NCBI GenBank assembly: GCA_038870455.1
Contig: JAWCPB010000012.1
Coordinates: 1 to 28,433 of the forward strand
Reading direction: 5' to 3'
DNA length: 28,433 nucleotides
Origin: Candidatus Micrarchaeia archaeon
GTDB taxonomy: Archaea > Micrarchaeota > Micrarchaeia > Burarchaeales > JACRGF01
Position numbers and translations under genes: made by a program. Shown piece after piece: positions 1,035 through 19,167 of the stretch. The notes under the pieces are model-generated. The model did not search any database. It saw only the letters and a program-made list of their open reading frames with translations, and was not told the origin of the DNA. The first letter of the stretch is position 1; every line of letters begins with the position of its first letter.

Positions 1035-2297
1035 TCACGCGCTCTTCCTGATCCAGTAGGCGATGACGTCCTGCAGGCCGTACAGCTTGGCGAACGCGCG
1101 CGCGTCCCGCCTGCTGAAGATGCCTTCAGTGGTGGATGACGCGAGGAAGGCGTCGTACAGCGCGTACTTGCTTTTCCTCGAGGCGACGCTCGCGCTTCCC
1201 TTGAAAAGCTTGAGCACCACGCTGCCGTTCACTTTTTCCTGCGTCTTGTCGATGAACGCGTCGAGCGCCTCCCTCAGGGGGGTGTACCACGCGCCTTCAT
1301 CCACGAGCCTGTTCCAAGCATAGTCAACGCCCGCCTTTGCATCGAGCTCCCTCTTCGTCAGCACGAGCTTCTCGAGCTCCCTGTGCGCGGTGATGATGCA
1401 GTACGCGGCGGGCGCTTCGTACACTTCCCTGACCTTGAGGCCTGCGGCCTTGTCCTCCATGTGGTCTATCCTGCCCACGCCGTGCGCGCCGGCGATCTTG
1501 TTAAGCCTCTCGATGACGCTGCCGGTTTCTTCAACCACTTTCTTTTTCTCATCCAGCACACGCAGCACGCGGGGAATGCCCATGTCGAAAGAGAGCTCGA
1601 CCCACTGTGGCTTGGGCGGCGCTTTCTCCGGCGCAACAGTCCAGGCGAAAGCGTCTTCAGGAACTTCGAGCTCAGGGTGCTCGAGCGGCCCGCTTTTTAT
1701 GCTCCTGCCCCAGATGTTTTCGTCAGTAGAGTACGGCTTTGGCTTTTCCTTGAGCTTGGCGAGCTTCTTTTCCTCAGCGTAGGCGAGCTCCTCGTCTCTC
1801 TTCAAGTCCCAGTCTCTGACAGGAGCGAGGACTTTGAGGTTGGGCGCGATGGCTCGGAGGCTCGCATCAAACCTAATCTGGTCGTTGCCTATGCCGGTGC
1901 TTCCATGCACGACCGCCTGCGCGCCCTCTTTGTCGGCGACTTCGGCGAGGTACTTGCAGAGGAGGGGCCTTGAAAGGCCTTCGCTGTTCAGCTCTCCTTC
2001 CCAGAGGCAATTCGCCTTTATCGCCTTCGCCACGTACTCGTTGATGAACTCGTCGCGCGCGTAGATTGTATAGTGCCTCTCCACGCCCATCGCCTCGGCT
2101 TTCCTTGCGACATCGCGCAGGTCGCGCGCCTGCCCGACATCGAGCGTGACCGTGACGACTTTGACCCCCATTTCCTGAAGCAACGCAACTGCAACGGTCG
2201 TGTCCAGCCCGCCCGTGAAGGCCACCACCGCCTTCTTCACGTCAGCGTGCTCGCTCTTGAACTCGCTTTTTATTCTGGCCAGCTTCTCCGCATCCAT
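1035..2297 (-). CDS. argG: Argininosuccinate synthase paralog (divergent copy 2)
   Basis: AFTGGLDT PP-loop, HGSTGIGNDQIRF, YSTDENIWGRS, REVYEAP. Start set at ATG 2297 (MDAEKLARIK), 11 bp after the copy-1 stop. Confidence 0.85.
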   Translation of the reverse strand: MDAEKLARIKSEFKSEHADVKKAVVAFTGGLDTTVAVALLQEMGVKVVTVTLDVGQARDLRDVARKAEAMGVERHYTIYARDEFINEYVAKAIKANCLWEGELNSEGLSRPLLCKYLAEVADKEGAQAVVHGSTGIGNDQIRFDASLRAIAPNLKVLAPVRDWDLKRDEELAYAEEKKLAKLKEKPKPYSTDENIWGRSIKSGPLEHPELEVPEDAFAWTVAPEKAPPKPQWVELSFDMGIPRVLRVLDEKKKVVEETGSVIERLNKIAGAHGVGRIDHMEDKAAGLKVREVYEAPAAYCIITAHRELEKLVLTKRELDAKAGVDYAWNRLVDEGAWYTPLREALDAFIDKTQEKVNGSVVLKLFKGSASVASRKSKYALYDAFLASSTTEGIFSRRDARAFAKLYGLQDVIAYWIRKSA

Positions 2298-2308
2298 TTT
2301 CTCACGCT

Positions 2309-3580
2309 TCAGCGCTTTTTGCCTTTCTTCCTCAACCGCCATGCCATGGCGTTCTGCAGGCCGAACAGCTTGGTGAAGGCCGCGCCCTCCCTCTGGCTCC
2401 AGGTTGTCGCTTTCTTGTCGTAGCTCGCCAGCGCGAGCGAATACAGGGCGTTGGGGCTTTCCCGCGCAACAACGCGCGCGCTTCCCTTGAAAAGCTTGAC
2501 AGTGGCGCTGCCGCTCACGGGTTCGTTGAGCCGCGCCTCCAGCTCCTGTAGCGTTTCCCTCAGGGGCGTCCACCACTGGCCCCTGTAAACGAGCTCGCTG
2601 AAGGCATGGTCCGCGCCCGCCTTGAACTCGAGCTCGTCCTTGGTTAGCACCGTCTTCTCGAGCTCCCTGTGCGCGGGCAGCAGCACGAGCGCGGCGGGCG
2701 CCTCATAGGCCTCCCTGCTCTTGAAGCCAATGACCCTGTCTTCCATGTGGTCTATTCTTCCCACGCCGTTTTTGCCCGCAACCCTGTTCAGCGCTTCCAC
2801 AATTTCAACGGGCCCGCTCACCCTGCCGCTCTCGCCTCCGCTGAACTCCACGCTCTGCGGCACGCCGTTTTCGAAAAATGTTTTTGCATAAGTCGGCTTG
2901 TCAGGCGCGCGCTCGGGCGCCACGCTCCAGGCAAAAGCATCCTCGGGCACCTCGAGCTCGGGCTTTTCCACGGGCCCCGCCTCGATGCTTCTTCCCCAGA
3001 TGTTTTCATCCACCGAATATTTTTTGCTGACCGTGCTGACCGGAATGCCCCTCTCGCGCGCGTACTCCACTTCCTCGTCGCGCCACAGCTCCCAGTCGCG
3101 CACGGGCGCGATGACCTTGAGCTCGGGCGCGAGCGCGCTCACGCCATTCTCGAAGCGAATCTGGTCGTTTCCCTTGCCCGTTGAGCCGTGCGCGACCGCC
3201 TGGCACTTTTCTTTCCTCGCAACCTCAACGAGGTGCTTTACTATGAGGGGCCTGCCGAGGGCGGTCGCCTCAGGGTACAGACCTTCGTAAAGGCAGTTGG
3301 CCTGCACCGCGGGGAAGATGTAGTCCGCCACGAATTCCTTGAGCGCATTCACGGCATGAATTTTTTTCACGCCCGCGCTCTTGGCTCTCGCCGCTATTTC
3401 CCGCATGTCTTCCTTCTGGCCGATTTCGAGCGTCAGCGCAACGACTTCAATGCCGAGCTCCTGTAGAATGCTGGCGATGACTGTCGTGTCCAGCCCGCCC
3501 GAGTAGGCGAGCACGCACCGCTCTATGCCCTCGTATTCCCCGGCGAAGTTTTCTTTTATCCTCTCAAGCAATCCGGCCAT
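2309..3580 (-). CDS. argG: Argininosuccinate synthase (canonical copy 1)
   Basis: LAYSGGLDT, HGSTGKGNDQIRFE, YSVDENIWGRSIE, EDRVIGFKSREAYEAP. GAGGTG RBS upstream. Confidence 0.96.
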   Translation of the reverse strand: MAGLLERIKENFAGEYEGIERCVLAYSGGLDTTVIASILQELGIEVVALTLEIGQKEDMREIAARAKSAGVKKIHAVNALKEFVADYIFPAVQANCLYEGLYPEATALGRPLIVKHLVEVARKEKCQAVAHGSTGKGNDQIRFENGVSALAPELKVIAPVRDWELWRDEEVEYARERGIPVSTVSKKYSVDENIWGRSIEAGPVEKPELEVPEDAFAWSVAPERAPDKPTYAKTFFENGVPQSVEFSGGESGRVSGPVEIVEALNRVAGKNGVGRIDHMEDRVIGFKSREAYEAPAALVLLPAHRELEKTVLTKDELEFKAGADHAFSELVYRGQWWTPLRETLQELEARLNEPVSGSATVKLFKGSARVVARESPNALYSLALASYDKKATTWSQREGAAFTKLFGLQNAMAWRLRKKGKKR

Positions 3581-3601: not shown

Positions 3602-5320
3602 TCATGCATTCTTTAAACCCTTTTTCCTTCTCGTTCGCCTTCCCGCCAGCCAGGCCAGCAGCGCGAAAGCGAGTATGAAAACCGCGGCCCCGAGCGCGAG
3701 CGCTTTTCCAAGCTCCTCTTTTCCCGCCTCCTGCAGGACAACCGTCTCCTCCCCTCCCTTCATTCTCGCGGTGGCTTGCTCGAGTTCCTGCGCATACCGC
3801 GCGAGCGACAGCGCGTTGAGCGCGCCGCGTTCATCGCCCAACTGATAATAATAGTACGCGTGCGCCTTGTAGATGCCCGCAAGCAGGCCGCTCGCGTTCC
3901 AGGCGAGCGCCCGGCCAGCCGCTTCCTCCACCCTCCCGGGGTTTAGCGCGGCTTCTTTCGCCGCGAGCGCCGAGGCTTTCGCGTACAGCGCGTCAAAAAT
4001 TGCTGCGCCATACTTTTTCTCCGCATGCAGCTCCCGCGCGCTTTCAAGATGCCACTTTTCTTCCTCGAAATTCTCGCCTCCTCCGAGCGCGGCTTCTGCT
4101 TCTGCTATGGCGCTTTCAGCCATTTGCTTCCATCTCCCCTCGTCTATCTCCCCGCCGCTTTCCTCGGCCCTTTGGTTCAGCCTCTCTGCGGTGCGGCACC
4201 ATCCCTCCGCGTATAACGCGTTCTTGAGCGCGCGCAGCAGGCTCTTCTCGCTGTCGGACTCTTCCAGCAGCTCGGCGGCTTCGCCCGCCTTCTTCTCGCT
4301 CCATTCCGCCCTGAGCCGCGCGGCCGCAAGCAGCTCGAAATTTTCTGTCGTGAGCCTTTTCCACGCGATTTTTCCGGAGCAGTCGCGCGTTTTCTCGAGC
4401 CTCTTGGCCACGCTCTGGCGCTCCGCGCCCGCGCTCTGTTCAAGCAGCGCGAGGTCAATGCCTGCCAGGAAGGCGGCGTTGCCGGCGGTGTAGTGATAGT
4501 TGGAGGCGGCCATTCTTCGGGCGAACTCGGCTTCCCCGGCAAAATGCTTTCTCGCCACCGGCGCCTGCTCAGCCTGCCTGTCGAATTCCTCAACCATTTC
4601 TCTCACAACTTCAGCAAATTTTTCCGCCCCGCCGGCCGGCTCGGGCAGCGGCTGGAGTGCAGGGATTTGCCTCACCCCGAGCTCAAGCCTTGTCTCAATC
4701 TTTTTCCAGGGCGCGAAGGCGATTTCCGCAGCTTCCCTCACATCGCCCGCCTCGACTATCGCGAGCCCCTTTCTCAAGGAGAAGGCGAGGAGCTCGACTT
4801 TCGCCTCCGCGCCCGTGGCTTCGGGCACAACGAGCGCTCTGACTCCCTTTGCTTCAGCCGCCTCGGCTTTCTCGAGCAGCCCTCCCACGCTCGCGATTCT
4901 CCCGTCTTCCATGATCCTGCCTGTTATCGCGGCATCGTCGCGCACGCTCCTGTTGAGCAGGCCGGCCAGCGTGAGCACGCTCATGGCCGCGCCGGCGCTC
5001 GGGCCATCCACGCTCCTGGCTGTTCCCGTGTCTTCGATTCTAAACAATACATCACAAGCGCTGCCATCAACGCCTGCCTCCTTGAACGCGACTTCGACCG
5101 CGGTGTTTTCGCTCTGCTGTGTGAGCAGGCCGGCGAACGGCGTTGTCGCCATATAGACGAGCCCGCGCCCTTCCCTCACCTCGCTCTCCACGAGCAGCAC
5201 GAGCCCCCTGCCGTCGTCGGTCACTGCCGGTACGAACATGGCATTGCGCGCGTGCGGGCAGGATGCGGCAACAGCTGATGCGAGCGCGAGCAGGGCGAGT
5301 AATGCGAACACTCTCGGCAT
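3602..5320 (-). CDS. Secreted, membrane-anchored Lon-like S16 serine protease without AAA+ domain (archaeal COG1750-like)
   Basis: Signal peptide MPRVFALLALLALASAVAA; DGPSAG catalytic Ser; ITGRI...VGGLLEK Lys of the dyad; long helical region; C-terminal TM followed by a basic tail. Confidence 0.88.
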   Translation of the reverse strand: MPRVFALLALLALASAVAASCPHARNAMFVPAVTDDGRGLVLLVESEVREGRGLVYMATTPFAGLLTQQSENTAVEVAFKEAGVDGSACDVLFRIEDTGTARSVDGPSAGAAMSVLTLAGLLNRSVRDDAAITGRIMEDGRIASVGGLLEKAEAAEAKGVRALVVPEATGAEAKVELLAFSLRKGLAIVEAGDVREAAEIAFAPWKKIETRLELGVRQIPALQPLPEPAGGAEKFAEVVREMVEEFDRQAEQAPVARKHFAGEAEFARRMAASNYHYTAGNAAFLAGIDLALLEQSAGAERQSVAKRLEKTRDCSGKIAWKRLTTENFELLAAARLRAEWSEKKAGEAAELLEESDSEKSLLRALKNALYAEGWCRTAERLNQRAEESGGEIDEGRWKQMAESAIAEAEAALGGGENFEEEKWHLESARELHAEKKYGAAIFDALYAKASALAAKEAALNPGRVEEAAGRALAWNASGLLAGIYKAHAYYYYQLGDERGALNALSLARYAQELEQATARMKGGEETVVLQEAGKEELGKALALGAAVFILAFALLAWLAGRRTRRKKGLKNA

Positions 5321-5344
5321 GGGCTTATTCGGGGCGGGGCTATC

Positions 5345-5352
5345 TTTAAATA
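5345..5352. promoter_or_regulatory. TATA box centred between divergent protease and NHL genes
   Basis: TTTAAATA lies about 20-25 bp from both start codons (5320 minus, 5372 plus). Confidence 0.6.
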
Positions 5353-5371
5353 TTCTCCCCACCCAAAAGCG

Positions 5372-7366
5372 ATGCGGCTTCGTGATTTCGTGAAAAACCT
5401 ACTGGCGAGCCTCCTCGCTCTGCTGGCGTTTTCCTCTTTCGCGCACGCGCTGTTGAACCTCACTCTCGTGGGCAGCATCACGGGCCTCTCCGATCCATCC
5501 GGAGTTTTCGTGGCGGCCGACGGCATCATCTGGATTACTGACGCGGGCGCGGGCAGGAGGAACTCCACGCTGTGGAGCTTTGACTCCAACCTGTCTTTCA
5601 TCAGCAGGACAGGCACGTGGGGAAGCGACGTCTACCAGTTCGTCATGCCGAGCGCGGTGTTCTTCGACTTGGAGGGCAAGCGCTACGTCGTGGACACGGG
5701 CAACAACCGCGTGCTCATCTACTCCCCGGGCGGCTCCTGGCTCGACACCATCGGCGAGGGCGGCTCCTACACGCTGAACGCCCCGCGCGACGTCTTCGTT
5801 GATGCAGAGCGCATTTATGTCGCGGACTCTTTCAACGACCGCGTGCTGCTTTTCAACCGCTCCACGCGCAGGCTCGAGAGCGTGCTGGGCCTTGAGCAGT
5901 TCGGGGAGGGCAAGCTCACGCGCCCCGCCGCCGTCTTCGTGCATGCCAATCGCCTGTACGTGCTCGACCACAGCCGGACGGGAGGCGACAACTACGGCAG
6001 GGTCGCAGTGTTCTCGCTCGCCAACCTTTCCTTCATCGGCGCGGCCGGCCGCGGCGCGGGCGGCGTTTTCCTGAATTTTCCCGAGGGCCTGGCGGTTGAT
6101 TTCCTGGGCCGCGTCTACGTGGCGGACACGGGCAGCAACAAGGTGAGGATTTTCTGGCCCGACTTCTCGCCCATGCTGTCTCTCGGCGACGCCAACTCGA
6201 CTGAGTTCAACTTCTCTTCCCCGCGCGATGTGTTCGTGGCGCGCGGCAGGCTCTATGTGGTCGATGCGGGCCACGGCCGCGTGCTCATCTACAACATGAG
6301 CGAGATCTCTACCGCCACCCCGGACGAGGCGAGGAACTCGATGCTTTACGCCAACGCCACGCTCGACTACCTGGCCCGCCTGAACTCGTCTGCGGCGCGG
6401 CTGGGCACTACGCTGGCCGGCGCCTCGCTCAACGACTACACGCTCGCGAGCCTGTCGCTCGCCGAGGCGCAGACGCGCTTCGCGGCAAACGACTTCGCCA
6501 GCGCGCTGCAGAAGGCCAACGCCTCGCTCGCCTATGCCGCTTCCTCGCGCGCCGCTCTTGAGGCCGAGGTCGGCGCGAGGCTCGCCCAGAGCGCCGGCAA
6601 CCTCTCGGCCCGCCTTGAGGGGGTGAAGGCCGACCTTCGCGCCTTCGATGTTTCCTTGAACACCTCGTCTGCGGAACAGGCCATAGCGTCCGTCCGCGCC
6701 CTATCTTCGGCGGGCGACTTCGAGGCGGCCATTCAGCAGCTTCAGATTGCGGGCATCGAGCTCCTCAACCTCGAGATCTCCCTCGATGCCCAGACGCGCG
6801 CCACCCGCGCCCTGAGGGAGAGCGCCGAGCAGGACATCGCTTATGTCGTGCTCAACAGCGCAAACCTCTCTTCGCTCGCTGCGGCTTACAAGCAGCCGGT
6901 CGACTTCTCGCGTGCTCTTGCGCTTGCCGGTGCTGCCAACGACTCTCTCTCCTCCTTCGATTTTGTCGCCGCACGCGAGAGGGCATCCTTCGCGCGCGCA
7001 GAGCTCGACGCGCTCAAGGCCGTTCTGCTGGAGCGCGTGGCGAGCATTGACAACGCGAGCGAGCGGATAGGCGAGGCCGAGGATGAGATCGATGCGGTCG
7101 CCTCCACCTCAGCCATACTCTTGAATCCGAACCTCTCGGAGGCCCGCTCGCTGCTCTCCCAAGCCAAATCCTTGCTCTACTCCGACCCCGACGCGGCCTA
7201 CGCGCTCGCAGTGCAGGCGAAGCAGAGCGCGGAGCGCGAGGCTGCCAACATGAGCCTGCTGCGCCCGCTCGTTCTCGGCGGCATCGTGGGCTTCGCCCTG
7301 CTGCTTGTCATTCTCGTGGTCTTCTTCATCCACAGCCAGGGAAAAGGCCAGCCCGCGCAGCCTTAA
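5372..7366 (+). CDS. NHL-repeat beta-propeller cell-surface glycoprotein with helical stalk and C-terminal TM anchor
   Basis: Signal peptide; repeated P...YVxDxxNxRV NHL units; Ala-rich helical region; TM LVLGGIVGFALLLVILVVFFI; about 18 N-x-S/T sequons. Confidence 0.9.
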   Translation: MRLRDFVKNLLASLLALLAFSSFAHALLNLTLVGSITGLSDPSGVFVAADGIIWITDAGAGRRNSTLWSFDSNLSFISRTGTWGSDVYQFVMPSAVFFDLEGKRYVVDTGNNRVLIYSPGGSWLDTIGEGGSYTLNAPRDVFVDAERIYVADSFNDRVLLFNRSTRRLESVLGLEQFGEGKLTRPAAVFVHANRLYVLDHSRTGGDNYGRVAVFSLANLSFIGAAGRGAGGVFLNFPEGLAVDFLGRVYVADTGSNKVRIFWPDFSPMLSLGDANSTEFNFSSPRDVFVARGRLYVVDAGHGRVLIYNMSEISTATPDEARNSMLYANATLDYLARLNSSAARLGTTLAGASLNDYTLASLSLAEAQTRFAANDFASALQKANASLAYAASSRAALEAEVGARLAQSAGNLSARLEGVKADLRAFDVSLNTSSAEQAIASVRALSSAGDFEAAIQQLQIAGIELLNLEISLDAQTRATRALRESAEQDIAYVVLNSANLSSLAAAYKQPVDFSRALALAGAANDSLSSFDFVAARERASFARAELDALKAVLLERVASIDNASERIGEAEDEIDAVASTSAILLNPNLSEARSLLSQAKSLLYSDPDAAYALAVQAKQSAEREAANMSLLRPLVLGGIVGFALLLVILVVFFIHSQGKGQPAQP

Positions 7367-7471: not shown

Positions 7472-8626
7472 TTATCCGAACATCAATGCCTCTGGCTTGA
7501 AGATGAGCAGCACCCCGAGCAGCAGCATGAGCAGCCCTCCAACCAGCTGGCTCGCCCTCGCGTATTTTTTCGAAAGCTCCACGCTGCTCAGCGTCACCAC
7601 TGCTACCGAGAATATTATCATGTCGTCCAGCATGTAGAAAAAGTCATAAAGGAGAATGTACGCTTGGTGCTCCAGCAGGGAAAGGTTGCTCAGCGCCAGA
7701 ATGCCCGTGTAAGTCGCCGGAAAGCCGGCAGAGCAGACCAGCTCAACGCTGTTGACGGTGAAGGCCAGCACGATCACTCCGAGCAGCGTGGCCGGCGTCG
7801 CCCCGCCCGCCGCGAGCTCTTTTGCTCTCTTCACCAGCTTGCTTCTTCCAATCGGATCGGTCACCCTGCACACCGCCTCCGGCAGCGTGATGAACTCCCT
7901 TAACTGAAATCCTCCTGCAACGAGCGCAATGCCCCCCACGGCCAGCCTGGCGATCGCCAGGTAGCCGAGGAACAGGAATACGCTGAGCCACGCTGACAGG
8001 AACAGGTAGTACCACACGCCCGAGGCGAGCACGAAAGTCCCCACAACGAGCCACATCCGCCGCCTGTCGCGCTGCCCCAGCAGCAGGGCTATCAGGTAGG
8101 TGAGCACCCACATGGCGCACGGATTAAAGCCGTCCAACAGCCCGAGCGTGAGCGCGAGCGCGGGCAGCGAAAGCTTGGTCAGCTCCACTTCGCCGAAAAA
8201 CGGCACTCTCGCGACGTACCTCCCGCGGGCCGCCGAAACACTCGCCTCCCTCCCGACAACCTCAGCCGGACTAACACAGCTTTTGCGCGCGCACTCCGCA
8301 ACCGCCGCCTCAATGTCCTTTCCGATTGTTTCCTCATCGAATCCCACCCAGTATTTTTCTCCGATGAAGGTGACCGGCACTCCGCCCAGCGGCACGCCAT
8401 AGGCTTTCGAAAAGTTTTCAAGCGTCCTTGCGTTCCCCACATCATACCACACCTCAAACTCGCGCACGGCCAGCGGGTACCTCCCCCTAAGCTCCTCAAG
8501 GAAAATCCTTTCGCTCGCGCAGTGCGGGCAGCCCGAGCCGTAGAAGAAATACACCTCAACGGCGTCGGCCAGTGCCGTGGCAGGCAGCGAAAGCAGGAGC
8601 GCGAGCGCAGCCAGTCTATAGTTCAT
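7472..8626 (-). CDS. Extracytoplasmic thioredoxin/glutaredoxin (CPHC) fused to DsbD/CcdA-like membrane domain
   Basis: Signal peptide; FFYGSGCPHC; GVPVTFIG (cis-Pro loop); TM domain with DGFNPCAM and ELVCSAGFP cysteines. Start ATG 8626 overlaps the argA stop. Confidence 0.85.
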   Translation of the reverse strand: MNYRLAALALLLSLPATALADAVEVYFFYGSGCPHCASERIFLEELRGRYPLAVREFEVWYDVGNARTLENFSKAYGVPLGGVPVTFIGEKYWVGFDEETIGKDIEAAVAECARKSCVSPAEVVGREASVSAARGRYVARVPFFGEVELTKLSLPALALTLGLLDGFNPCAMWVLTYLIALLLGQRDRRRMWLVVGTFVLASGVWYYLFLSAWLSVFLFLGYLAIARLAVGGIALVAGGFQLREFITLPEAVCRVTDPIGRSKLVKRAKELAAGGATPATLLGVIVLAFTVNSVELVCSAGFPATYTGILALSNLSLLEHQAYILLYDFFYMLDDMIIFSVAVVTLSSVELSKKYARASQLVGGLLMLLLGVLLIFKPEALMFG

Positions 8627-9092
8627 AAACAACCGCCACCTCATCGCATTCGGCGAACTTGGGGCAGCGTATGCAGTCGCTCCATATCTTCATGGGCAGC
8701 GTGTTCCTCTCGACTCTGCGGAAGCCCAGCCTCTCGAAAAAGCCGGGGATGAGCGTGAGCGCGAACACGCGCTTGAGCCTCAGCCTCCGGGCCTCTTGAA
8801 GGCACGCCCTGACGAGCGCGCTGCCTATCCCTCGCCTCTGCCACCGCGGCGCGACCGCGAGCGATCGAATCTCCCCCAAGTCTTTCCAATAGATGTGCAG
8901 CGCGCAGCATCCGACAGGCTTTTCCCCCACGCGCGCGACATAAAAATCCCTTATGTGCTCGTACACTTCGCTGAGCGGGCGCGGGAGCAGCCTGGCCTTC
9001 TTCGTGTACATCTCGACGAGGCGCGAGATTTCCTCAGCGTCGTGAATACGCGCGCGGCCTATTTCCGTGTCCGCGTGCTTTGCCGCGCTCAT
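8616..9092 (-). CDS. argA: Short GNAT-type N-acetylglutamate synthase
   Basis: MSAAKH...LLPRPLSEVYEHIRDF...EIRSLAV...QRRGIG...LPMKIWSDCIRCPKFAECDE. ATGA overlap with the argD stop. Confidence 0.85.
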   Translation of the reverse strand: MSAAKHADTEIGRARIHDAEEISRLVEMYTKKARLLPRPLSEVYEHIRDFYVARVGEKPVGCCALHIYWKDLGEIRSLAVAPRWQRRGIGSALVRACLQEARRLRLKRVFALTLIPGFFERLGFRRVERNTLPMKIWSDCIRCPKFAECDEVAVVYEL

Positions 9093-10255
9093 CCTCCTTT
9101 CCTCACTACCCTCTCGAATTTTTCGGCGACCGTCTCCAGCTCCTTCTCGCTCGCCACCAGCGGCGGAGTGAAGCGGACGACGAAATCGCTCGGGCAGGAT
9201 GACAGCACGCGCGCGGCGGCCAGCCTCTCGCAGTAGGGCCTGGCCCGCTCGCGCAGCTCCACGCCGACAAGCAGGCCTTTTCCCCGCACCTCTTTTATCA
9301 GCCCGCTCTTTATCTCCCCGAGCCTGCGCAGGAACCTCGCCCCATTTTTCGCCGCTTTTTCCGCGAGCCTCTCCCTCCTTATCACCCTGATGCTGGCGAG
9401 CGCGGCCGCGCATGCGAGCGAGTTTCCCCCGAAAGTGCTGCCGTGGTCTCCCTTCTCGAACTTTTCCGCCACATCCCCTCGTGCGAGCATTCCCCCCATG
9501 GGGAACCCGCCGGCGATGCCTTTCGCCACGCATACGATGTCCGGCTCCACCCCATAGAGCTGGCTGGCGAACATCCGCCCGCATCTTCCGAAGCCCGTCT
9601 GCACTTCGTCGGCGATAAGCAGCACATCCCGCTCGCTGCAGAGCTCGCGCAGCTCGCGCAGGTACCCCTCGCTCGGCACATTCACCCCGCCTTCCCCTTG
9701 AATCGGCTCGACAATCACCGCAGCCGTTTCCTCGTTTATCGCTTTCCTCACCGCGCCCGCGTTGTTGAACGGCACCCTCCGCACGCCGGGCACGAGGGGC
9801 TCGAACGGCTGCCTGTACTTGGGCTTCCAGGTGAGCGAAAGCGCGCCCATCGTCCTGCCGTGAAAGCCGTCCTCCATCGTAATAATCTCCTTCTTTTTCG
9901 TCGCCTTTCGGGCAAGCTTGAAAGCCGCCTCCACGGCCTCTGCTCCGGAGTTACACAGGAAGGCGCGCGCCCTCTTCATGGGCGCAATCTTTGCCAGCTC
10001 GGCGCACAGCCCTGCCTGCTCGCTCGTGTAGTACCAGTTGCTGGCCTGCCACAGCCTGCCCGCCTGCTCCCTGAGCGCCCGGACGACTGCGGGATGGCAG
10101 TGCCCGATATTCAGCACAGCAACCCCCCCAGTGCAGTCGATGTATTCTCTTCCGCGGTCGTCCCACACCCGCGCGCCCTCGCCCCTCGCAAGGACGATTT
10201 TGAACCTGTTGTAAACCTGCATGGAATATTTTGCATCCAGTTCTATCGCGTTCAC
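9089..10255 (-). CDS. argD: Acetylornithine aminotransferase
   Basis: Class III PLP motifs NSGAEA, FHGRT, EPIQGEGG, DEVQTG, AKGIAGG. Lies in the arg operon. Confidence 0.93.
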   Translation of the reverse strand: MNAIELDAKYSMQVYNRFKIVLARGEGARVWDDRGREYIDCTGGVAVLNIGHCHPAVVRALREQAGRLWQASNWYYTSEQAGLCAELAKIAPMKRARAFLCNSGAEAVEAAFKLARKATKKKEIITMEDGFHGRTMGALSLTWKPKYRQPFEPLVPGVRRVPFNNAGAVRKAINEETAAVIVEPIQGEGGVNVPSEGYLRELRELCSERDVLLIADEVQTGFGRCGRMFASQLYGVEPDIVCVAKGIAGGFPMGGMLARGDVAEKFEKGDHGSTFGGNSLACAAALASIRVIRRERLAEKAAKNGARFLRRLGEIKSGLIKEVRGKGLLVGVELRERARPYCERLAAARVLSSCPSDFVVRFTPPLVASEKELETVAEKFERVVRKGG

Positions 10256-11070
10256 GCAACCACCATCGTGCCCCCGCCCTTCAGCGCGTTCTCAACCGGC
10301 CTTGCCGTCCTTCCGTCCGCCAGCACTATCCTCCTCGCGCCCGCCTTCCAGGCATCGACGCATGCCTCCAGCTTGGCCACCATGCCCCCGTGCACTTTTT
10401 TCTCAGCCAGCAGCCTCTGTATTTCCCTCACGCTCATTTTTTTCACGACGCTTCTCTCATCCCCCTCGTCCGCCAGAAAACCAGGCACGTCGGTGAGCAG
10501 CACGAGCCAGTCGCACCGCAGCTGCGCCGCGAGCACCCCGGCCAGCTCGTCTCCATTTACGTTCAGGCACTCGTCCTCCTCCCCCTGCGCGATGCACGCG
10601 ACCACGGGGATGAACTTGTTTTTCAGCAGGAAATTGAACAGCTCCTTATTCACCTTTTTCGTCAAGCCCGTGAAGCCAATCCACTCTTTTTTCGTCTCGC
10701 CGCCCTCCTCCCACTCCGTGTACTCCTGCTTTCGCGCGACAATCGCGCTGCTCTCGTTTCCGTTCACCCCAATCGCTTTTCCGCCAAACTTTCCCACCAG
10801 GTAGCAAAGGTGTGCATTCACCCCGCCCGCGATGACGTTTCTCATGAGCTCCATTGTAGCCTTATCGGTCACCCTCCACGGCCTGGGCTTCCCCACCCAC
10901 CGCTGCTTTATCCCGAGCCTCTCCGCAACTCGGTTGACTTCCCTCCCCCCGCCATGCACGAAGATGAGCCGGTTCCTCTCCGCCAGCCTGACGACATCCC
11001 TCACAACACCGGCCACGGTCTCCTCGTTGTCCAGCAGGCTTCCGCCGATCTTCACAACTATCTTCATCAC
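10252..11070 (-). CDS. argB: Acetylglutamate kinase
   Basis: VKIGGS, VHGGG, RVTD, LNVNGDE, LLTDVPG, GGMVAKL. GTGA overlaps on both sides. Confidence 0.92.
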   Translation of the reverse strand: MMKIVVKIGGSLLDNEETVAGVVRDVVRLAERNRLIFVHGGGREVNRVAERLGIKQRWVGKPRPWRVTDKATMELMRNVIAGGVNAHLCYLVGKFGGKAIGVNGNESSAIVARKQEYTEWEEGGETKKEWIGFTGLTKKVNKELFNFLLKNKFIPVVACIAQGEEDECLNVNGDELAGVLAAQLRCDWLVLLTDVPGFLADEGDERSVVKKMSVREIQRLLAEKKVHGGMVAKLEACVDAWKAGARRIVLADGRTARPVENALKGGGTMVVA

Positions 11071-12242
11071 AGCCCCTCGTACGCCGCGTTTTCAGTGATG
11101 TAATCGTAAGTGAGGTCGCACGTCCAGACGAACCCCTTCGCCTTCCCAGCTTTGGCATCCACCTCAATCACAACCCCCTCTTCCTCCAGCCTTTCCCTCG
11201 CAGCATCCTCCCTGCCTGTGGAAACGCCGTTTCTCACCACCTTCACCCCGTTCATTGTTATATCCATTCTCTCACTCACCCTCGCCCCGCTCCTGCCCGC
11301 TGCCGCGGCTATCCTGCCCCAGTTCGCGTCCTCCCCGAAAACCGCCGTCTTAACGAGGTTCGAATTGGCAATCGCTTTCGCAATGCGCTGCGCCTCCTCC
11401 TCGTTCGCCGCGCCATTCACCCTCACCTCGATGAACTTGCTCGCTCCCTCGCCGTCATGCACGATCATCCTCGCCAGCTCCTGGCAGAGGGAGGTTAGTG
11501 TCTTCTCGAATTCCCTATAATCCCCGCCCACGCTGCTTATTTCCCTGTTTCCGGCCCGGCCGTTCGCCAGGATGATGACCGTATCGTTCGTGCTCATGTC
11601 TCCATCCACGCTTATCCTGTTGAAGCTCTGCCCCACAGCAGCGGCGAGCGCCTTCCTCAGCAGGCTTCCCTTTATGAGCGCATCGGTGGCTATGATGCAC
11701 ACCATCGTCGCCATGTTCGGGCATATCATGCCGGCTCCCTTGCAAATTGCGCCTATCCTGACCGCCCGGCCGCCCACCGCCACCTCCCGGTAGGCCGCCT
11801 TCATTCTCGTGTCGGTCGTCATGATGGCCCGCGCGGCGTGCTCCCACCGATTCGCCGGCCTTTTGACAAGCCTCCTTATCCCCTCGCGTATTTTCGCCAT
11901 GGGCAGCCTCTTGCCGATGATGCCCGTGCTCGCACACAGCACGAGCCTCTCGCTTATCCCCAGCTCGCTCGCGACCAGCGCACACATTTTTCTCGCGTCA
12001 GCAATTCCCTGCTTTCCATTGCACGCGTTTGCGTTCCCAGAGTTTATGAGGATGGCCTGCGCCATCCCCTTCCGCAGTTTTTCCTTATCCACTTTTATGT
12101 GCGCGCCCGTCACCTTGTTCGTCGTGAAGACGCCCGCGGCTCTCGCGGGCGAGTCGGAGAAAATCAGCGCGAGGTCCCTATTCCTGTATTTTATGCCGCA
12201 GTGCACGCCGGCCGCGCCGAAACCGCGGACTCTCGTTATCAC
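11067..12242 (-). CDS. argJ: Ornithine acetyltransferase / N-acetylglutamate synthase
   Basis: NSGNANA, STGIIG, IMTTDT, KGAGMICPNMATM (autocleavage Thr), DGDMSTND, DGEGA, WTCDLTYDYITENAAY. Confidence 0.96.
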   Translation of the reverse strand: MITRVRGFGAAGVHCGIKYRNRDLALIFSDSPARAAGVFTTNKVTGAHIKVDKEKLRKGMAQAILINSGNANACNGKQGIADARKMCALVASELGISERLVLCASTGIIGKRLPMAKIREGIRRLVKRPANRWEHAARAIMTTDTRMKAAYREVAVGGRAVRIGAICKGAGMICPNMATMVCIIATDALIKGSLLRKALAAAVGQSFNRISVDGDMSTNDTVIILANGRAGNREISSVGGDYREFEKTLTSLCQELARMIVHDGEGASKFIEVRVNGAANEEEAQRIAKAIANSNLVKTAVFGEDANWGRIAAAAGRSGARVSERMDITMNGVKVVRNGVSTGREDAARERLEEEGVVIEVDAKAGKAKGFVWTCDLTYDYITENAAYEGL

Positions 12243-13100: not shown

Positions 13101-14405
13101 TCAGAGACCCTTGGGCACTCTCTGGTTTAGCAGGAGCTCCTCGAACGCCTGCCGCTCTCTCACAAGAAATGCCTTCCCCCTCCTCACAAGCACTTCCGCG
13201 GGCAGCGGCCTCATGTTATAGTTGCTGGCCATGGCCATCCCGTACGCGCCCGCGCACAGGAAAGCTATGACATCGCCTTCTTTAACCACCGGAAGGTGCC
13301 GATCCCTCGCCAGCACATCGCCGCTTTCACAGATGTTCCCAACCACATCGGCTTTCTCAGCCTGCCCGCCCGCCACGTTGTTCGCAACCACAGCCTCGTG
13401 CCAGGCGCCGTACATCGCCGGCCTGGCCAGCACGTTGAAGCCGGCATCCACCGCGACGAATTTTTTTGCCGCACCCTCCTTTACTGTCTGCACGCGCGCC
13501 AGCAGCACGCCCGCGTTCCCAACGATGTACCTGCCGGGCTCTATTTTCACCTCAAGGTTTCCCAATCCAAGCCTTTTCGCTTCTTTTTTCACCATCGGCA
13601 TGACCGCTCCCGCAACCGTTTTTGGCTCCAATACCCTTTCTCCCCTCCTGTAGCGAATGCCGATGCCTCCCCCCAGATCAACAAACCGCAGGCGCACGCC
13701 GATATCCTTTAGCTCCCCGCACAGCCGCATCAGCTTGGCCGCGGCCTGCGCGAACGGCCGCGCCTCCAGAATCTGCGAGCCGATGTGCGTGTGAACTCCG
13801 ATGGGTTCTACGAAGTTCGCCGCAAGCGCTTTCTCGTAAGCCTCCACAACCCTGTCCATGGGTATTCCGAACTTGCTTTCTCTTCTGCCCGTCTGCCAGC
13901 CCGCGTGCGTCGCGGCAACAACATCCGGATTCACGCGGAAGCACACGAGCGCTTTCTTCCCCTCCTCGCCGGCAATCTCCTCAACCTGTTCCACTTCGCT
14001 CTCGGCATCCAGCGTGATGATGACGCCATTCTCTATCGCGAATTTTATCTCCTCCCTTGATTTCGTGTTTATCGTGAAAATCATCTTCCTGCCCTTGAAG
14101 CCAGCCCTCAGTGCAAGAAGCATCTCCCCGCCAGAAACACAGTCAACGCCCGCCCCTTCCCTTCTCAGCAGTTCGAGAAGGGCTAGGCTAGCATTGGCTT
14201 TCGCCGCGTAGTGCACGGTGACGTTTGGGTAGAATTTCCTGTACGCATCGCTGATTCTCCTGTAATTCTCAATCACTTTGTCCGCATTCATCACATACAG
14301 CGGCGTTCCGAATCTGTCCGCTAGCCTGCATGCGTCCGCCTCCCTAATGAACAGGCGGTTGCCCTTCACTTCGAGGTGCCCCTTTTCCTCCCACCATTGC
14401 GGCAT
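13101..14405 (-). CDS. lysA: Diaminopimelate decarboxylase
   Basis: YAAKAN, SKFG, HTHIGSQ, DLGGG, EPGRY, CESGD, MASNYN. Confidence 0.97.
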   Translation of the reverse strand: MPQWWEEKGHLEVKGNRLFIREADACRLADRFGTPLYVMNADKVIENYRRISDAYRKFYPNVTVHYAAKANASLALLELLRREGAGVDCVSGGEMLLALRAGFKGRKMIFTINTKSREEIKFAIENGVIITLDAESEVEQVEEIAGEEGKKALVCFRVNPDVVAATHAGWQTGRRESKFGIPMDRVVEAYEKALAANFVEPIGVHTHIGSQILEARPFAQAAAKLMRLCGELKDIGVRLRFVDLGGGIGIRYRRGERVLEPKTVAGAVMPMVKKEAKRLGLGNLEVKIEPGRYIVGNAGVLLARVQTVKEGAAKKFVAVDAGFNVLARPAMYGAWHEAVVANNVAGGQAEKADVVGNICESGDVLARDRHLPVVKEGDVIAFLCAGAYGMAMASNYNMRPLPAEVLVRRGKAFLVRERQAFEELLLNQRVPKGL

Positions 14406-15563
14406 CTAAATCACTCCCGCGAGCCTCTCAACGGCTTCCTTTATGCGCTCCCTCGGCTGCGTGAGCGCAAACCTCACATAGCCCTCGCCCGTTCCGCCGA
14501 AGCCGGCGCCTGGCGTCACCACGACGTTCGCCTGAAGCGCTTTTTTGGCGAACTCGACGCTGTTCCCGCCCGGCGCTCTCGTCCAGACGTAGAAGGTTGC
14601 GAGGGGAAGCCTTGTCTTGAGCCCGATTTTGTTGAGTCCTCTCACAAGAATTTTTCTCCTTCGCGCGAATTCCCTCACCCTCTTCTCCACTTCCTTTGGC
14701 CTCTGGCTTCCCGCATAGCTGTCGAGCGCCTCGGCAGCCATTTTCTGCACGTAAACGGGCGGGCCCGAGTCTATCTGCGATTTTATTCTCCGCAGCCCTT
14801 CGATGAGCTCGGCGTTTCCGACCGCGAACCCTATCCTGTCGCCCGTGACGCAGAACGTTTTCGACAGCGAGTGGAACTCGATGACGTTGCGCGTGAATTC
14901 GAGCATGCTGGGCGCGCGGTAGTCATCAAACGTCAGCTCGCAGTACGCGTTGTCGTAGCAGAGTATCGTTCTCGTTTCTTCACAGTAGTCGACGACTCCT
15001 TCGAGCGTGTCGCGTGCTGCAACCGCGCCCGTGGGGTTGTTGGGGTAGTTGAGGTAGAGCAGGCGCGCGCCCGTGGGCGTGAAGTGCTCCACCCTGGCCT
15101 GGAAATCGTTTTCCTCTAGTAGCGGGAACGCCACGGGCTTGCCGTCGCTCAGCAGCGCCGCGCCCTGGCCATACACTGGATAGGCCGGTTCGGGCACGAG
15201 CACGGCGTCGCCAGAATTCACGAACGCCCTTGCGAGATTGGCCAGCCCCTCCTTGCTGCCGATGAGCGCGATGACCTCCTTCTGCGGATCGACTTCCACC
15301 CCGAACCTCTTTTTCATCCACCGCGCGCACGCTTCTCGGAAAACCGGCTCCCCCTGCGACAGCGAATAGTTGTGATTCTTTGGATTTTTTGCCTCGCGGG
15401 CGAGCGCGCGCAGTATGAACTTGGGCGGGGGCAGATCAGGATCGCCTATCCCAAGGTTTATGATGTCCGCTCCCGCAGCCTTCTTCTCCGCAACCGCCTT
15501 CTCTATTTCCGCGAACAGGTAGGGCGGAAGCCGCCTCACCCTCTCGCTGTACTCAAACGCCAT
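14406..15563 (-). CDS. dapL: LL-diaminopimelate aminotransferase (class I PLP)
   Basis: LPPYLFAEI, LGIGDPD, GSKEG, NYPNNPTG, DNAY, IEFHSLSKT..TG.RIGF. Abuts lysA in a dap cluster with no dapD/dapE in view. Confidence 0.88.
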   Translation of the reverse strand: MAFEYSERVRRLPPYLFAEIEKAVAEKKAAGADIINLGIGDPDLPPPKFILRALAREAKNPKNHNYSLSQGEPVFREACARWMKKRFGVEVDPQKEVIALIGSKEGLANLARAFVNSGDAVLVPEPAYPVYGQGAALLSDGKPVAFPLLEENDFQARVEHFTPTGARLLYLNYPNNPTGAVAARDTLEGVVDYCEETRTILCYDNAYCELTFDDYRAPSMLEFTRNVIEFHSLSKTFCVTGDRIGFAVGNAELIEGLRRIKSQIDSGPPVYVQKMAAEALDSYAGSQRPKEVEKRVREFARRRKILVRGLNKIGLKTRLPLATFYVWTRAPGGNSVEFAKKALQANVVVTPGAGFGGTGEGYVRFALTQPRERIKEAVERLAGVI

Positions 15564-15583
15564 GCCCTCATTTCCTCCAAAGC

Positions 15584-15591
15584 TTTTTAAA
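15584..15591. promoter_or_regulatory. TATA box centred between divergent dapL and membrane-protein gene
   Basis: TTTTTAAA lies about 20-23 bp from both starts. Confidence 0.55.
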
Positions 15592-15613
15592 CAACTTTTC
15601 CTAAACCGTTGCC

Positions 15614-16450
15614 GTGCCCGATGTACTGCGCGCCATCATCGATGCCTTTGAGTTGTGGAAAAATAATTGGCAGAAATTCATCACTGCGTACATCATACTC
15701 TTCGTCATCGGCCTTGTTTTCGGCGTAATCGATTTCCTCATTGGCTTTTTTCAGAATGCGTTGTGCTCTTCGGAAGACCCGGCCGCGTTCCTCGCCTTGT
15801 GCGTTTTTCCCCAGCTTATTCCCTACGTCTTTGGCGCTCTCAAGGGCTTTCTGAGCCTCATCATCGCGCTCGCGGTCATCAGGCCTTTCTACGAGCTTTC
15901 CGAGAGAAAGCCGGTGAGCGACTGGGCGGGCCACTTTCTCCCGCAGCTTTCCAACGCCATTAAGATACTCATACTGCGTTTCGCCGTCTCCCTCGCGGCC
16001 TTCACCCCGATCGGCGTCGTGCTGGCCCTCAACCTCTCGGCGCTCCTCGCGCTGGCCGCAAGCGGGGCCAAAGGCCCCGCATTTCTCTCTGTTCTTCCAA
16101 CTGTTGCCCTCGTCTCCTTCATCGCATCTGCGCTCTTTGGCATTGTCTTCCTTTTCATTGCCAATTTCCTGCTGACTTTCCTGGAAATCGAGGTCGTCCT
16201 CTCGAGGCCGGACGTCATACGGGCCGCTGGGGCAAGCCTCGCGCTCGTAAAGCAAAATCTTCTCGATGTGTTCATCTTCGGCTTGGTCTGGGCAGGCGTT
16301 GGATTTGGCGTTGGCGTGCTCTCGCTTTTCCTCTGCGCCACGATTGTCCTCATTCCGGTTATCTTTCTCATTCAGTCCTTTGTCCTCGCCCCCGTCTATA
16401 CGCTCTCAAGCATTCTGCTCTGGAAGCAGCTGAGGCCGGGCGCGCCTTAG
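15614..16450 (+). CDS. Uncharacterised polytopic membrane protein
   Basis: 278 aa with about 5-6 hydrophobic segments. Fills the dapL-dapA gap and overlaps the dapA stop by 4 bp. Confidence 0.8.
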   Translation: MPDVLRAIIDAFELWKNNWQKFITAYIILFVIGLVFGVIDFLIGFFQNALCSSEDPAAFLALCVFPQLIPYVFGALKGFLSLIIALAVIRPFYELSERKPVSDWAGHFLPQLSNAIKILILRFAVSLAAFTPIGVVLALNLSALLALAASGAKGPAFLSVLPTVALVSFIASALFGIVFLFIANFLLTFLEIEVVLSRPDVIRAAGASLALVKQNLLDVFIFGLVWAGVGFGVGVLSLFLCATIVLIPVIFLIQSFVLAPVYTLSSILLWKQLRPGAP

Positions 16451-17343
16451 GAAACCAGCCCGTACTTCTTGAGCGTCTCGCGAATCCTTATCCTGTTGTC
16501 GTTTGTCGTCTCGCACAGCGGCAGCCTGAACCCCCCGCCAGGCAGGCCCATGATGTTCAGCGCCTCCTTGACGGGCACGGGGTTGGTGTCGATGAACAGC
16601 ACTTCGAACAGCTCCTTGAGCGCGCCGTGCTCCTGCGCCATGTCCTCAAACTTTCCTTCCAGCCCGTACCGCACGAACGCCTTCATTCGCTTGGGCGCGA
16701 TGTTGCTGGCCACGCTGATGACCCCGCGACCGCCGTACTCATGCATGAGAGTGTAAGTGTCGCCATCGTTGCCCGAAAGGATGAGGAAGTTTGGCCCGCA
16801 GGCTTCGCGGATGGCCTTCCACACTTCTGGCTTTCCGCTCGCTTCCTTGACGCCAATGATGTTGCTGTATTCCTTGGCCAGCCTGGCCATGGTCTGCGGG
16901 GCGATCTCCCTGCCTGACCTCGATGGTATGTTATACAGGATGTGCGGTATGTCCACGGCCTCTGCGACCGCCGCGAAGTGCCTGTAAAGCCCCTCTTGGC
17001 TGGGCCTGTTGTAATACGGGCAAACTTGGAGCGTGGCGTGCGCGCCAGCGTCTTTTGCGTGCTTGCTCATGGCGATGGCTTCCCAAGTGCAGTTGCTGCC
17101 CGTTCCTGCAATGACCTTCCCCTTGCAGCCTTCGATGGTCAGGTCGATGAGCCTGTTGTGCTCGGCGTGGCTCGTGGTGGGCGACTCGCCGGTCGTGCCG
17201 CACGGCACGATGCCGTCAACCCCGCCCTCGTTCTGGAACTCGACGAGCCTGCGGAAGCCCTGCCAATCCACCCTGGTCCTGGCACCAGTGCCCTTGTACG
17301 GGGTGACTATCGCGGTAAAGCACCCCTCAAACCCTCCAGCCAT
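16447..17343 (-). CDS. dapA: 4-hydroxy-tetrahydrodipicolinate synthase
   Basis: GTTGES, GTGSN, PYYN, LYNIPSR, GVKEAS, SGND, TNPVPVK. GAGGTGA RBS. Confidence 0.97.
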   Translation of the reverse strand: MAGGFEGCFTAIVTPYKGTGARTRVDWQGFRRLVEFQNEGGVDGIVPCGTTGESPTTSHAEHNRLIDLTIEGCKGKVIAGTGSNCTWEAIAMSKHAKDAGAHATLQVCPYYNRPSQEGLYRHFAAVAEAVDIPHILYNIPSRSGREIAPQTMARLAKEYSNIIGVKEASGKPEVWKAIREACGPNFLILSGNDGDTYTLMHEYGGRGVISVASNIAPKRMKAFVRYGLEGKFEDMAQEHGALKELFEVLFIDTNPVPVKEALNIMGLPGGGFRLPLCETTNDNRIRIRETLKKYGLVS

Positions 17344-17390
17344 ACTCTCACCTCGTGCAAAAAAGCACGCAGTTAGTATATTAACAAGCT

Positions 17391-17429
17391 AATTTAAATA
17401 CTTTTCGTATAAAAAATACGGAATTCGTA
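17391..17429 (-). promoter_or_regulatory. dapA promoter (BRE+TATA) with putative Lrp-family operator
   Basis: Minus strand CGAAAAG-TATTTAAAT; palindrome TACG-GAATT-CGTA at 17417-17429; CGTAT-A5-ATACG at 17406-17420. Confidence 0.65.
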
Positions 17430-17430
17430 A

Positions 17431-18234: not shown

Positions 18235-18247
18235 GCTTTCACCGGAG

Positions 18248-18676: not shown

Positions 18677-18702
18677 TTTCTCCCAGAAATAGTTGCGGAA
18701 AG

Positions 18703-18711: not shown

Positions 18712-18732
18712 CCACTGGGAGGTAATGCCCGC

Positions 18733-19158: not shown

Positions 19159-19167
19159 GGAGAGCGC

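Follow-up and report, generated by a model that had tools for sequence, protein, structure and literature searches.

Argininosuccinate synthase (ASS; ArgG or ASS1, EC 6.3.4.5) is described by the family models TIGR00032 and NF001770 and by solved structures such as PDB 4u7j, 1j1z and 2nz2. The window studied here, which is the whole stretch of 28,433 nucleotides analysed from a Candidatus Micrarchaeia archaeon (contig JAWCPB010000012.1), carries two argG genes in tandem, and the second of them, copy 2, is the subject of this report. Copy 2 belongs to a group of paralogs named here ArgG2. Judged by its sequences, ArgG2 is a Micrarchaeota-specific offshoot of ASS that is conserved, masked by its annotation and apparently remodelled in the acceptor pocket. 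Copy 2 resembles canonical ArgG in two-domain architecture and length, and the ATP contacts, those of the PP-loop included, are common to both, as is the Thr119/Asn123/Asp124 aspartate loop (human ASS numbering). It differs in the deletion of Pro88 and in the replacement of Tyr83, Tyr87, Lys121, Glu191, Arg272 and residue 377. Two features of an argininosuccinate synthase are thereby lacking, namely the full set of citrulline contacts and Lys121/Arg272.

The contacts used for comparison are those of human ASS, as given in a mutational study of the human enzyme (PMC13289927). ATP is contacted by Ala10, Tyr11, Ser12, Gly14, Leu15, Asp16, Thr17, Ala36, Gln40, Arg95, Ile98, Gly117, Thr119, Asp124, Ser180 and Asp182; aspartate by Thr119, Asn123 and Asp124; and citrulline by Tyr87, Asn123, Arg127, Ser189, Glu191, Glu270 and Tyr282. 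The enzyme is a tetramer, and intragenic complementation has shown that loop 375–378 of the human protein completes the active site of the neighbouring subunit. The same study gives yeast growth values for human variants. E191K supports 0.021 of wild-type growth, is termed "amorphic" and is listed as Pathogenic/Likely Pathogenic (tables S4/S5), while E191D is the sole tolerated change of Glu191 (0.82). All six tested replacements of Lys121 (Glu, Met, Asn, Gln, Arg or Thr) are amorphic, with growth of 0.016–0.044. Tyr87Phe gives 0.24, and Arg272Cys gives 0.08 but Arg272His 0.92; Arg272Lys is not among the variants seen there.

Relatives of ArgG with the same fold and another function are also described. 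The ArgG-like nitrile synthetase (PDB 9lei/9leh, according to the deposited title) combines an ASS-like fold with a different adenylation chemistry; such an enzyme is reportedly the subject of a paper by Zeng et al. in ACS Catal of 2025. The model NF038212, "argininosuccinate synthase-related protein" (argG_rel, an exception model), represents a curated non-ArgG relative. Assignment of copy 2 to either group was rejected. It matches the nitrile synthetase at 113.5 bits (E 1e-31), against 283.3 bits for the true ArgG 4u7j, its best solved match, and it scores 207.9 bits with NF038212 against a cut-off of 425, with eight other ArgG2-type proteins at 138–221 bits. More broadly, the motif FTGGLDT (residues 27–33) places copy 2 in the PP-loop superfamily of N-type ATP pyrophosphatases (SGGxD(S/T)), and weak matches to the QueC, MnmA, LarE and NAD synthase models were found. 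A language-model look-alike search from which the ArgG families were left out returned only generic PP-loop clusters at 0.78–0.79, below the level of 0.9 from which such a match counts as more than a lead.

The tandem argG pair and the active site of copy 2

The features of the pair are listed below; residue numbers in brackets are those of copy 2.

2309 to 3580, minus strand: argG copy 1 (P0001, 423 aa), a canonical argininosuccinate synthase by profile scores and contact residues
2298 to 2308, minus strand: spacer of 11 nt between the stop codon of copy 1 (TGA) and the ATG of copy 2
1035 to 2297, minus strand: argG copy 2 (P0002, 420 aa), ArgG2 subclade A, with the ATG at 2297 and the stop at 1035
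2196 to 2222, minus strand: PP-loop AFTGGLDTT (residues 26–34), the retained ATP pyrophosphatase motif; AYSGGLDTT in copy 1
1965 to 2009, minus strand: acceptor loop CLWEGELNSEGLSRP (residues 97–111), with Tyr83Trp, Tyr87Leu, Pro88 deleted, Thr91Glu and a new Asn at 89; CLYEGLYPEATALGRP in copy 1, longer by one residue
1872 to 1907, minus strand: aspartate-loop segment HGSTGIGNDQIR (residues 131–142), with Thr119, Asn123, Asp124 and Arg127 kept and Lys121Ile; HGSTGKGNDQIR in copy 1
1689 to 1709, minus strand: GRSIKSG (residues 197–203), with Ser189 kept and Glu191Lys (Lys201, codon 1695–1697); GRSIEAG in copy 1
1416 to 1460, minus strand: MEDKAAGLKVREVYE (residues 280–294), with Glu270 and Tyr282 kept, Arg272Lys and Ser278Val; MEDRVIGFKSREAYE in copy 1
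1131 to 1145, minus strand: LASST (residues 385–389), corresponding to the intersubunit loop of human ASS (375–378), with Tyr377Ser; ALASYD in copy 1

The two genes are co-directional, arranged head to tail within 1035–3580 of the minus strand, and base composition is even over both. The frame of copy 2 is intact and full length, as the original prediction had stated. A longer reading of its open reading frame (ORF), with a GTG start and reaching up to 2576, was rejected: it overlaps copy 1, and nothing equivalent is present in L001, an orthologous locus described below. The two proteins share 212 identities over 415 positions (51%, E 4e-149), and both carry PF00764, the HUP domain at the N-terminus, and PF20979, the synthase domain at the C-terminus (E 1.5e-51 and 1.7e-71, respectively, in copy 2). 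The equivalog cut-offs of NF001770 (334 bits) and TIGR00032 (268.2 bits) are exceeded by copy 1 at 477.6 and 451.9 bits and by copy 2 at 436.3 and 411.5 bits. The best protein matches are named as Candidatus Micrarchaeia or Micrarchaeota (DPANN archaea).

Human numbering was transferred by aligning copy 1 to PDB 2nz2 (chain index = native number + 1) and then the two copies to each other. Copy 1 has the canonical residue at every tabulated ATP, aspartate and citrulline contact position. At the 16 ATP contacts listed above, copy 2 has A, F, T, G, L, D, T, L, Q, R, L, G, T, D, S and D, all of which are judged retained; Tyr11Phe, Ser12Thr and Ile98Leu count as conservative differences. All three aspartate contacts are present. 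Five of the seven citrulline contacts are kept (Asn123, Arg127, Ser189, Glu270 and Tyr282), and Tyr87 and Glu191 are lost. At the substitution-sensitive pocket residues, Lys121 is replaced by Ile and Arg272 by Lys, and Tyr322Asp is a further difference from copy 1. Pro88 is the only true deletion in the signature. When 98 positions conserved in at least 97% of 114 canonical sequences were inspected, 13 were found changed in copy 2, pocket positions among them.

Every motif difference between the copies quoted in the original prediction was found again on re-reading the DNA, and its central observation, that the ATP PP-loop and the Thr/Asn/Asp aspartate loop are kept while the acceptor side is remodelled, is borne out by the alignments and the DNA alike. 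Of the residues it had named as citrulline contacts, Tyr87 and Glu191 both appear in the contact list of the human enzyme (PMC13289927). The conservation of these positions in other genomes is given in the next section. The Ser/Thr at 91/92, reportedly a citrulline contact in the UniProt entry for human ASS, lies outside that list.

Conservation, phylogeny and genomic context of ArgG2

Substitutions unique to this genome, together with dN/dS near 1, would have marked copy 2 as a decaying duplicate and refuted the original prediction; they proved to be common to 88 sequences. A search with copy 2 returned the near-identical orthologues P0003 (90%) and P0004 (87%), and P0005–P0007, at 53–56% identity, carry the same substitutions. 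An exhaustive profile search over 1.84 billion representatives added P0122, P0123, P0124, P0127 and P0132. When a profile built from the distant members was used in a word-indexed search, 75 more clusters were obtained at 513–644 bits; canonical ArgGs followed from 497 bits downward, with the subclade A protein P0007 just above them at 508 bits. The named sources of the 88 sequences are all Micrarchaeota, Anstonellales or "uncultured archaeon". These sources label the proteins "argininosuccinate synthase", and all eight other ArgG2-type proteins scanned pass the TIGR00032 cut-off (306–390 bits).

Conservation was tabulated for the 88 ArgG2 and 114 canonical sequences (from archaea and other lineages) in one MAFFT alignment with copy 1 as the reference:

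Pro88: absent from 88 of 88 ArgG2, present in 114 of 114 canonical
Tyr87: 0 of 88 ArgG2, 114 of 114 canonical
Lys121: 0 of 88 ArgG2, 111 of 114 canonical
Glu191: 0 of 88 ArgG2 (Arg in 78, Lys in 9, Trp in 1), 114 of 114 canonical
Arg272: 1 of 88 ArgG2 (Lys in 86), 114 of 114 canonical
Tyr83: 4 of 88 ArgG2, 114 of 114 canonical

The Tyr87 count depends on gap placement: P0122, P0127 and P0132 have a Tyr one position off, and a smaller alignment put it in column 87. Glu191 is also present in all five solved ASS sequences with displayed alignments. The nucleotide side is kept throughout the 88 sequences, with Gly14 in 86, Asp16 in 82 (plus four Glu and two gaps), Arg95 in 87, Gly117 in 87, Ser180 in 85, Asp182 in 87 and Lys277 in 88. 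At the aspartate site, Ser/Thr119 is found in 85, Asn123 in 86 and Asp124 in 68, plus 11 with Glu. Basic residues were gained family-wide at position 151 (Arg in 48, Lys in 32), at 191 and at the position of copy 2 residue 400 (Arg in 83, Lys in 4). The signature is maintained down to about 38–43% identity. We define ArgG2 by the deletion of Pro88, the absence of Tyr87 and of Lys121, a basic residue at 191 (Lys or Arg), Lys at 272 and membership of one clade; all five residue features are found in copy 2.

Two canonical-type Micrarchaeota ArgGs, P0012 and P0024, are canonical at every tabulated contact except Lys121, where they have Met (K121M gives 0.044 in the human enzyme). P0024 and the ArgG2 protein P0007 pair by an identical longest-contig size (22711).

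Selection on both copies was estimated by the Nei-Gojobori method against the orthologues in L001. Nonsynonymous divergence (dN) is 0.044 and synonymous divergence (dS) 0.59 for copy 1, with a ratio (omega) of 0.075; for copy 2, which is 89% identical to its orthologue, the values are 0.055, 0.67 and 0.082. The ratio of copy 2 is thus far from 1, the value expected of a decaying duplicate, and an omega as low as that of the canonical copy argues for a working protein. A pseudogene reading was ruled out by this ratio together with the signature shared by 88 sequences. Only the change of residues essential in human ASS would favour it; the intact frame and the persistence of the signature at such divergence stand against it, and decay can practically be dismissed.

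Unrooted trees were inferred by maximum likelihood (quick search, LG+C20+F+G4), with support from the SH-like approximate likelihood-ratio test (SH-aLRT) only. ArgG2 is monophyletic both when represented by 13 of 58 rows (support 99) and by 24 of 55 rows (support 100). It joins the canonical ArgGs of Micrarchaeota rather than those of other archaea, in a joint clade of 26 rows with support of 100. We read this topology as the outcome of an ancient duplication of the argG native to the lineage.

P0361, a paralog of a third type, has Glu191Lys, Arg272Lys, Glu270Gln and Tyr282Cys and keeps Lys121 and Arg127. It groups on a long branch with the canonical P0010 (SH-aLRT 92–94), its presumed neighbour by the same longest-contig size of 52055, and in an approximately unbiased (AU) test its placement inside ArgG2 was not rejected (p 0.217). 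Convergent changes after an independent duplication could account for P0361, as could gene conversion.

ArgG2 divides into subclade A, with seven sequences including copy 2, and subclade B, with 81 sequences including the protein of locus L002. The citrulline contacts of subclade B are thinned out: Arg127 is kept in 20 of 81, Glu270 in 13 (Asp in 52) and Ser189 in 18. Its bulky Tyr83 and Tyr87 have given way to loops rich in Gly, Ala and Ser, and Arg was gained at positions 329, 373 and 377 (77–81 of the 88 sequences). Subclade B is basic, with a median net charge of +7 and a median isoelectric point (pI) of 9.05 (n = 76). Subclade A has medians of −1 and 6.66 (n = 7; copy 2 itself −1 and 6.71), and canonical ArgGs have medians of −2.5 and 6.4 in Micrarchaeota (n = 22) and −8 and 5.64 elsewhere (n = 101). 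The two subclades form a graded series, from A, with few changes and beside the parent gene, to B, with many changes, a basic protein and one examined locus without an adjacent parent.

Genomic context was examined by a genome scan with two peptide patterns, one of which also fits bacterial ArgG. Among the best 80 loci from at least 600 matched stretches, 77 were bacterial at 37–42% identity, and the Micrarchaeota loci were L001–L003 only. L001, on contig JAWAFC010000006 of a Micrarchaeia metagenome-assembled genome (MAG), repeats the order of the window, with a gene for a Lon-like peptidase followed by copy 1 and copy 2; the copies there are separated by 1 nt, and GTG is the start codon of copy 2. 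L002, on the Micrarchaeota MAG contig JAOAJL010000004, carries a subclade B gene directly after the Lon-like gene. A canonical argG is not adjacent to it, and the flanks of about 10 kb to both sides are free of arginine genes. In L003, a single canonical argG ends a row that, named from translations, is apparently argJ-argB-argD-argC-argF-argG, and no ArgG2 stands beside it.

Co-occurrence was also followed through contig sizes. For contigs whose DNA was not seen (those of P0005–P0007, P0122, P0281 and P0361), pairing was judged by identical longest-contig size. Each cluster is represented by its longest contig, and canonical genes of another type would escape. ArgG2 and canonical clusters have identical sizes in four cases: 28433 (the window), 22711, 4114 and 4680. 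On ArgG2 contigs of at least 40 kb (up to 1.17 Mb), one of 13 (L001) has a Micrarchaeota-type canonical ArgG among the matches listed. The other 12, of 45 kb–1.17 Mb, have no size match with the 21 Micrarchaeota-type canonical clusters among the best 120 matches, which is indirect evidence. The existence of unpaired members suggests that the family is independent of a canonical partner and argues against an obligate heterotetramer.

Canonical genes of this type are the rarer ones in the searched protein collection. A profile of the Micrarchaeota canonical ArgGs gave 20 clusters at 687 bits or above and one at 612, followed by a drop to Bathyarchaeia, and the nine new Micrarchaeota clusters found in this way are canonical at all 21 positions checked. 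The 88 ArgG2 sequences thus stand against about 21 clusters, roughly 4:1. In a DPANN comparative study (PMC8407392), ArgG/ArgH are annotated in 13.3% of Micrarchaeota and called laterally acquired. Literature searches returned no description of a Micrarchaeota ArgG paralog; in the same study, the ArgG/ArgH trees (Figs S28, S29) may already show the split.

Possible functions of ArgG2

Our preferred reading, which is tentative and falls a little short of an even chance, is that copy 2 is an active PP-loop adenylating ligase whose acceptor is something other than citrulline bound in the standard way. It follows from the conserved nucleotide half, the mostly kept aspartate site, the rebuilt acceptor end, purifying selection, the age of the clade and the unpaired member. 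Citrulline held canonically would be an improbable acceptor because the part of the pocket that receives its amino-acid end is rebuilt. New chemistry on the ArgG fold has a precedent in the nitrile synthetase 9lei/9leh.

In the proposed mechanism, copy 2 would bind Mg-ATP at the PP-loop, as ArgG does, and would adenylate a carbonyl oxygen (ureido or carboxyl) of the acceptor, after which an amine, most likely still aspartate, would displace AMP. In subclade A, the charges of the pocket are moved and not lost, since the changes of Lys121 to Ile, Glu191 to Lys and Thr91 to Glu balance out in net charge. This would fit, as the acceptor, a related small molecule that lies in another orientation or carries an extra acidic group. 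The more acidic or N-acylated acceptor put forward in the original prediction on account of the Glu-to-Lys change is a reasonable guess from the sequence. The sequences show family membership, the conservation pattern, purifying selection and the clade; that copy 2 is catalytically active, that aspartate still attacks the adenylate and what kind of acceptor is used are points that we infer.

For ArgG2 as a whole, it is possible, though again a little short of an even chance, that this is an undescribed family which uses the adenylation machinery of ArgG for an uncatalogued reaction with a non-citrulline acceptor; in subclade B, the acceptor is perhaps a nucleotide, RNA or an acidic carrier protein.

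Several observations weigh against a non-citrulline ligase. The contacts of subclade A are largely those of a synthase, with Arg127, Glu270 and Asn123 in seven of seven sequences, Tyr282 in six, Ser189 in five and Asp124 in four. The changes at Lys121, Glu191 and Thr91 could compensate one another, leaving a rewired pocket in which citrulline is still bound. Lys121 itself may be dispensable in the lineage, as P0012 and P0024 have Met121, which weakens the argument from this residue. Human ASS, the source of the mutational data, is about 50% identical to these proteins, and its results need not transfer. A canonical copy is present on the same contig in all four judgeable contexts of subclade A (the window, L001 and the contigs of 4114 and 22711), out of seven members in all, and the spacers of 1–11 nt where DNA was seen (the window and L001) fit a pair of subunits. 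Finally, the genes neighbouring ArgG2 in the window, L001 and L002 gave no hint of a substrate.

The original prediction of a paralog with a changed acceptor role holds as regards the intact frame, the kept ATP and aspartate sites and the rebuilt pocket; of its two versions, a ligase and a non-catalytic partner, the first is only tentatively preferred. The second version would make copy 2 a non-catalytic or regulatory subunit in a mixed tetramer with copy 1, which we regard as unlikely. It could act by donating its C-terminal loop to the active sites of copy 1 or by tuning the enzyme, for example through the sensing of ATP or a metabolite. Partners derived by duplication from homo-oligomeric enzymes are a general pattern, and copy 2 resembles them in that its gene stands in tandem with that of a tetrameric paralog and its substrate contacts are changed. 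The co-directional genes with short spacers (11 nt in the window, 1 nt in L001) and the constant proximity of subclade A to a canonical copy agree with such a pair, as does the loss of human ASS function through one substitution, for example E191K. The active site of the ASS tetramer, shared between subunits (PMC13289927), also favours this reading. However, the ATP site of copy 2 is conserved, and the PP-loop and ATP contacts are kept family-wide, although a purely structural subunit would not need them. The loop of copy 2 is itself altered (Tyr377Ser), which makes it no obvious donor of a canonical loop. A distant ArgG2 member, that of L002, has neither an adjacent canonical argG nor an arginine gene nearby, and the 12 contigs without a size-matched canonical cluster point indirectly the same way.

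It is likewise unlikely that copy 2 is a true argininosuccinate synthase isozyme with a rewired pocket, in which Lys201 (position 191) would stand in for Lys121 and Glu106 (position 91) for Glu191. Such an isozyme would pass the argG equivalog cut-offs, as copy 2 does. Further points in its favour are that subclade A keeps Thr119, Ser180 and the contacts counted above, that the triple charge change is neutral, that the genome also has ArgJ, ArgB and ArgD and that P0012 and P0024, of canonical type, do without Lys121 as well. On the other side, Glu191, Tyr87, Pro88 and Arg272 are invariant in the 114 canonical sequences, and Glu191 in the solved enzymes. Copy 2 carries the equivalent of E191K, which is amorphic in human ASS, where only E191D is tolerated; an ordinary synthase is therefore improbable. 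Moreover, redundancy would hardly account for one distinct signature in 88 sequences or for persistence without an adjacent canonical gene.

A polyanionic macromolecule or a phosphorylated compound as the substrate, for example an acidic carrier protein, an RNA base or a nucleotide, is a very unlikely solution. TilS, MnmA and GMP synthase are PP-loop enzymes that act on substrates of this kind. The basic residues gained at 151, 191 and the position of residue 400, with those at 329, 373 and 377 in subclade B, agree with it, as do the small-residue loops in place of Tyr83 and Tyr87 in subclade B and the basic character of this subclade relative to the Micrarchaeota canonical proteins. Copy 2, however, is not basic and keeps most amino-acid contacts, so that this explanation fits subclade B better. 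A Pfam scan of copy 2 revealed no RNA-binding domain, and the look-alike search reached only PP-loop families, at 0.78–0.79 and so below the level of more than a lead.

If ArgG2 is an undescribed family of this kind, with an acceptor other than citrulline, most "argininosuccinate synthase" calls in Micrarchaeota are wrong and the capacity of these archaea for arginine synthesis is overstated. Inferences about arginine production in reduced-genome, host-dependent archaea rest on argG calls and would need checking if ArgG2 is not a synthase. ArgG2 is also a clean natural case of enzyme evolution, in which a duplicated adenylating enzyme kept its nucleotide half and had its acceptor half rebuilt.

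Gene neighbourhood and other features of the window

The genes around the pair follow one another closely on the minus strand, in the order Lon-like S16 peptidase, copy 1, copy 2 and CoaBC (2–1024), with spacers of 21, 11 and 10 nt. The first of these is the following feature:

3602 to 5362, minus strand: Lon-like S16 peptidase, with PF05362 at residues 53–216 and no AAA+ domain

The peptidase has a hydrophobic N-terminus, a proteolytic domain only and a long helical C-terminal part. Its gene lies directly upstream of the argG/ArgG2 unit in three loci: the window, L001 (6996–8711) and L002 (8209–9987). The peptidases of the window and L002 are 33% identical over 530 aa (E 2e-77), and the respective ArgG2 proteins are about 43% identical. 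This neighbourhood may reflect a functional link or merely an inherited gene order. On the 3′ side of copy 2, L001 encodes PurE, PurC and a UbiA-type prenyltransferase, unlike the window, and the neighbours in L002 are TyrRS, a beta-carbonic anhydrase, aRF1 and FtsZ. Promoter and terminator scans of the locus gave results at chance level, the models being of bacterial type and the host archaeal. PADLOC defence-system models gave no match for either ArgG copy.

At 5–9 kb from the pair, on the same strand, lie genes for ArgJ, ArgB, ArgD and a short ArgA-like acetyltransferase of the GNAT family, in a row at 8616–12242. The ORF at 8616–9584 overlaps ArgD and has the GNAT domain in its last approximately 150 residues, so the true start is probably near 9100. 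Beyond this row is a diaminopimelate-lysine cluster with ArgRS (13101–21265, minus strand; LysA, a DapL-type aminotransferase, DapA, DapB and ArgRS). The amino-acid biosynthesis set of the window is fuller than is usual in DPANN archaea.

Two large ORFs, of 350 and 764 aa, lie at 22917–26279 on the minus strand and have no Pfam or NCBIfam match, and the GC-content at 23001–24000 falls to 0.503 compared with about 0.60 elsewhere. A membrane protein of 390 aa with a CPHC motif and no family match is encoded at 7472–8644 on the minus strand. On the plus strand, positions 21576–22823 encode a protein of 415 aa with an HD_4 domain and weak matches to the RelA/SpoT family (74.5 bits, with a cut-off of 499), perhaps an archaeal protein resembling small alarmone hydrolases. 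The stretch that separates the Lon-like gene from the arg genes encodes, at 5372–7366 on the plus strand, an NHL-repeat protein of 664 aa with weak ScyF-like matches.

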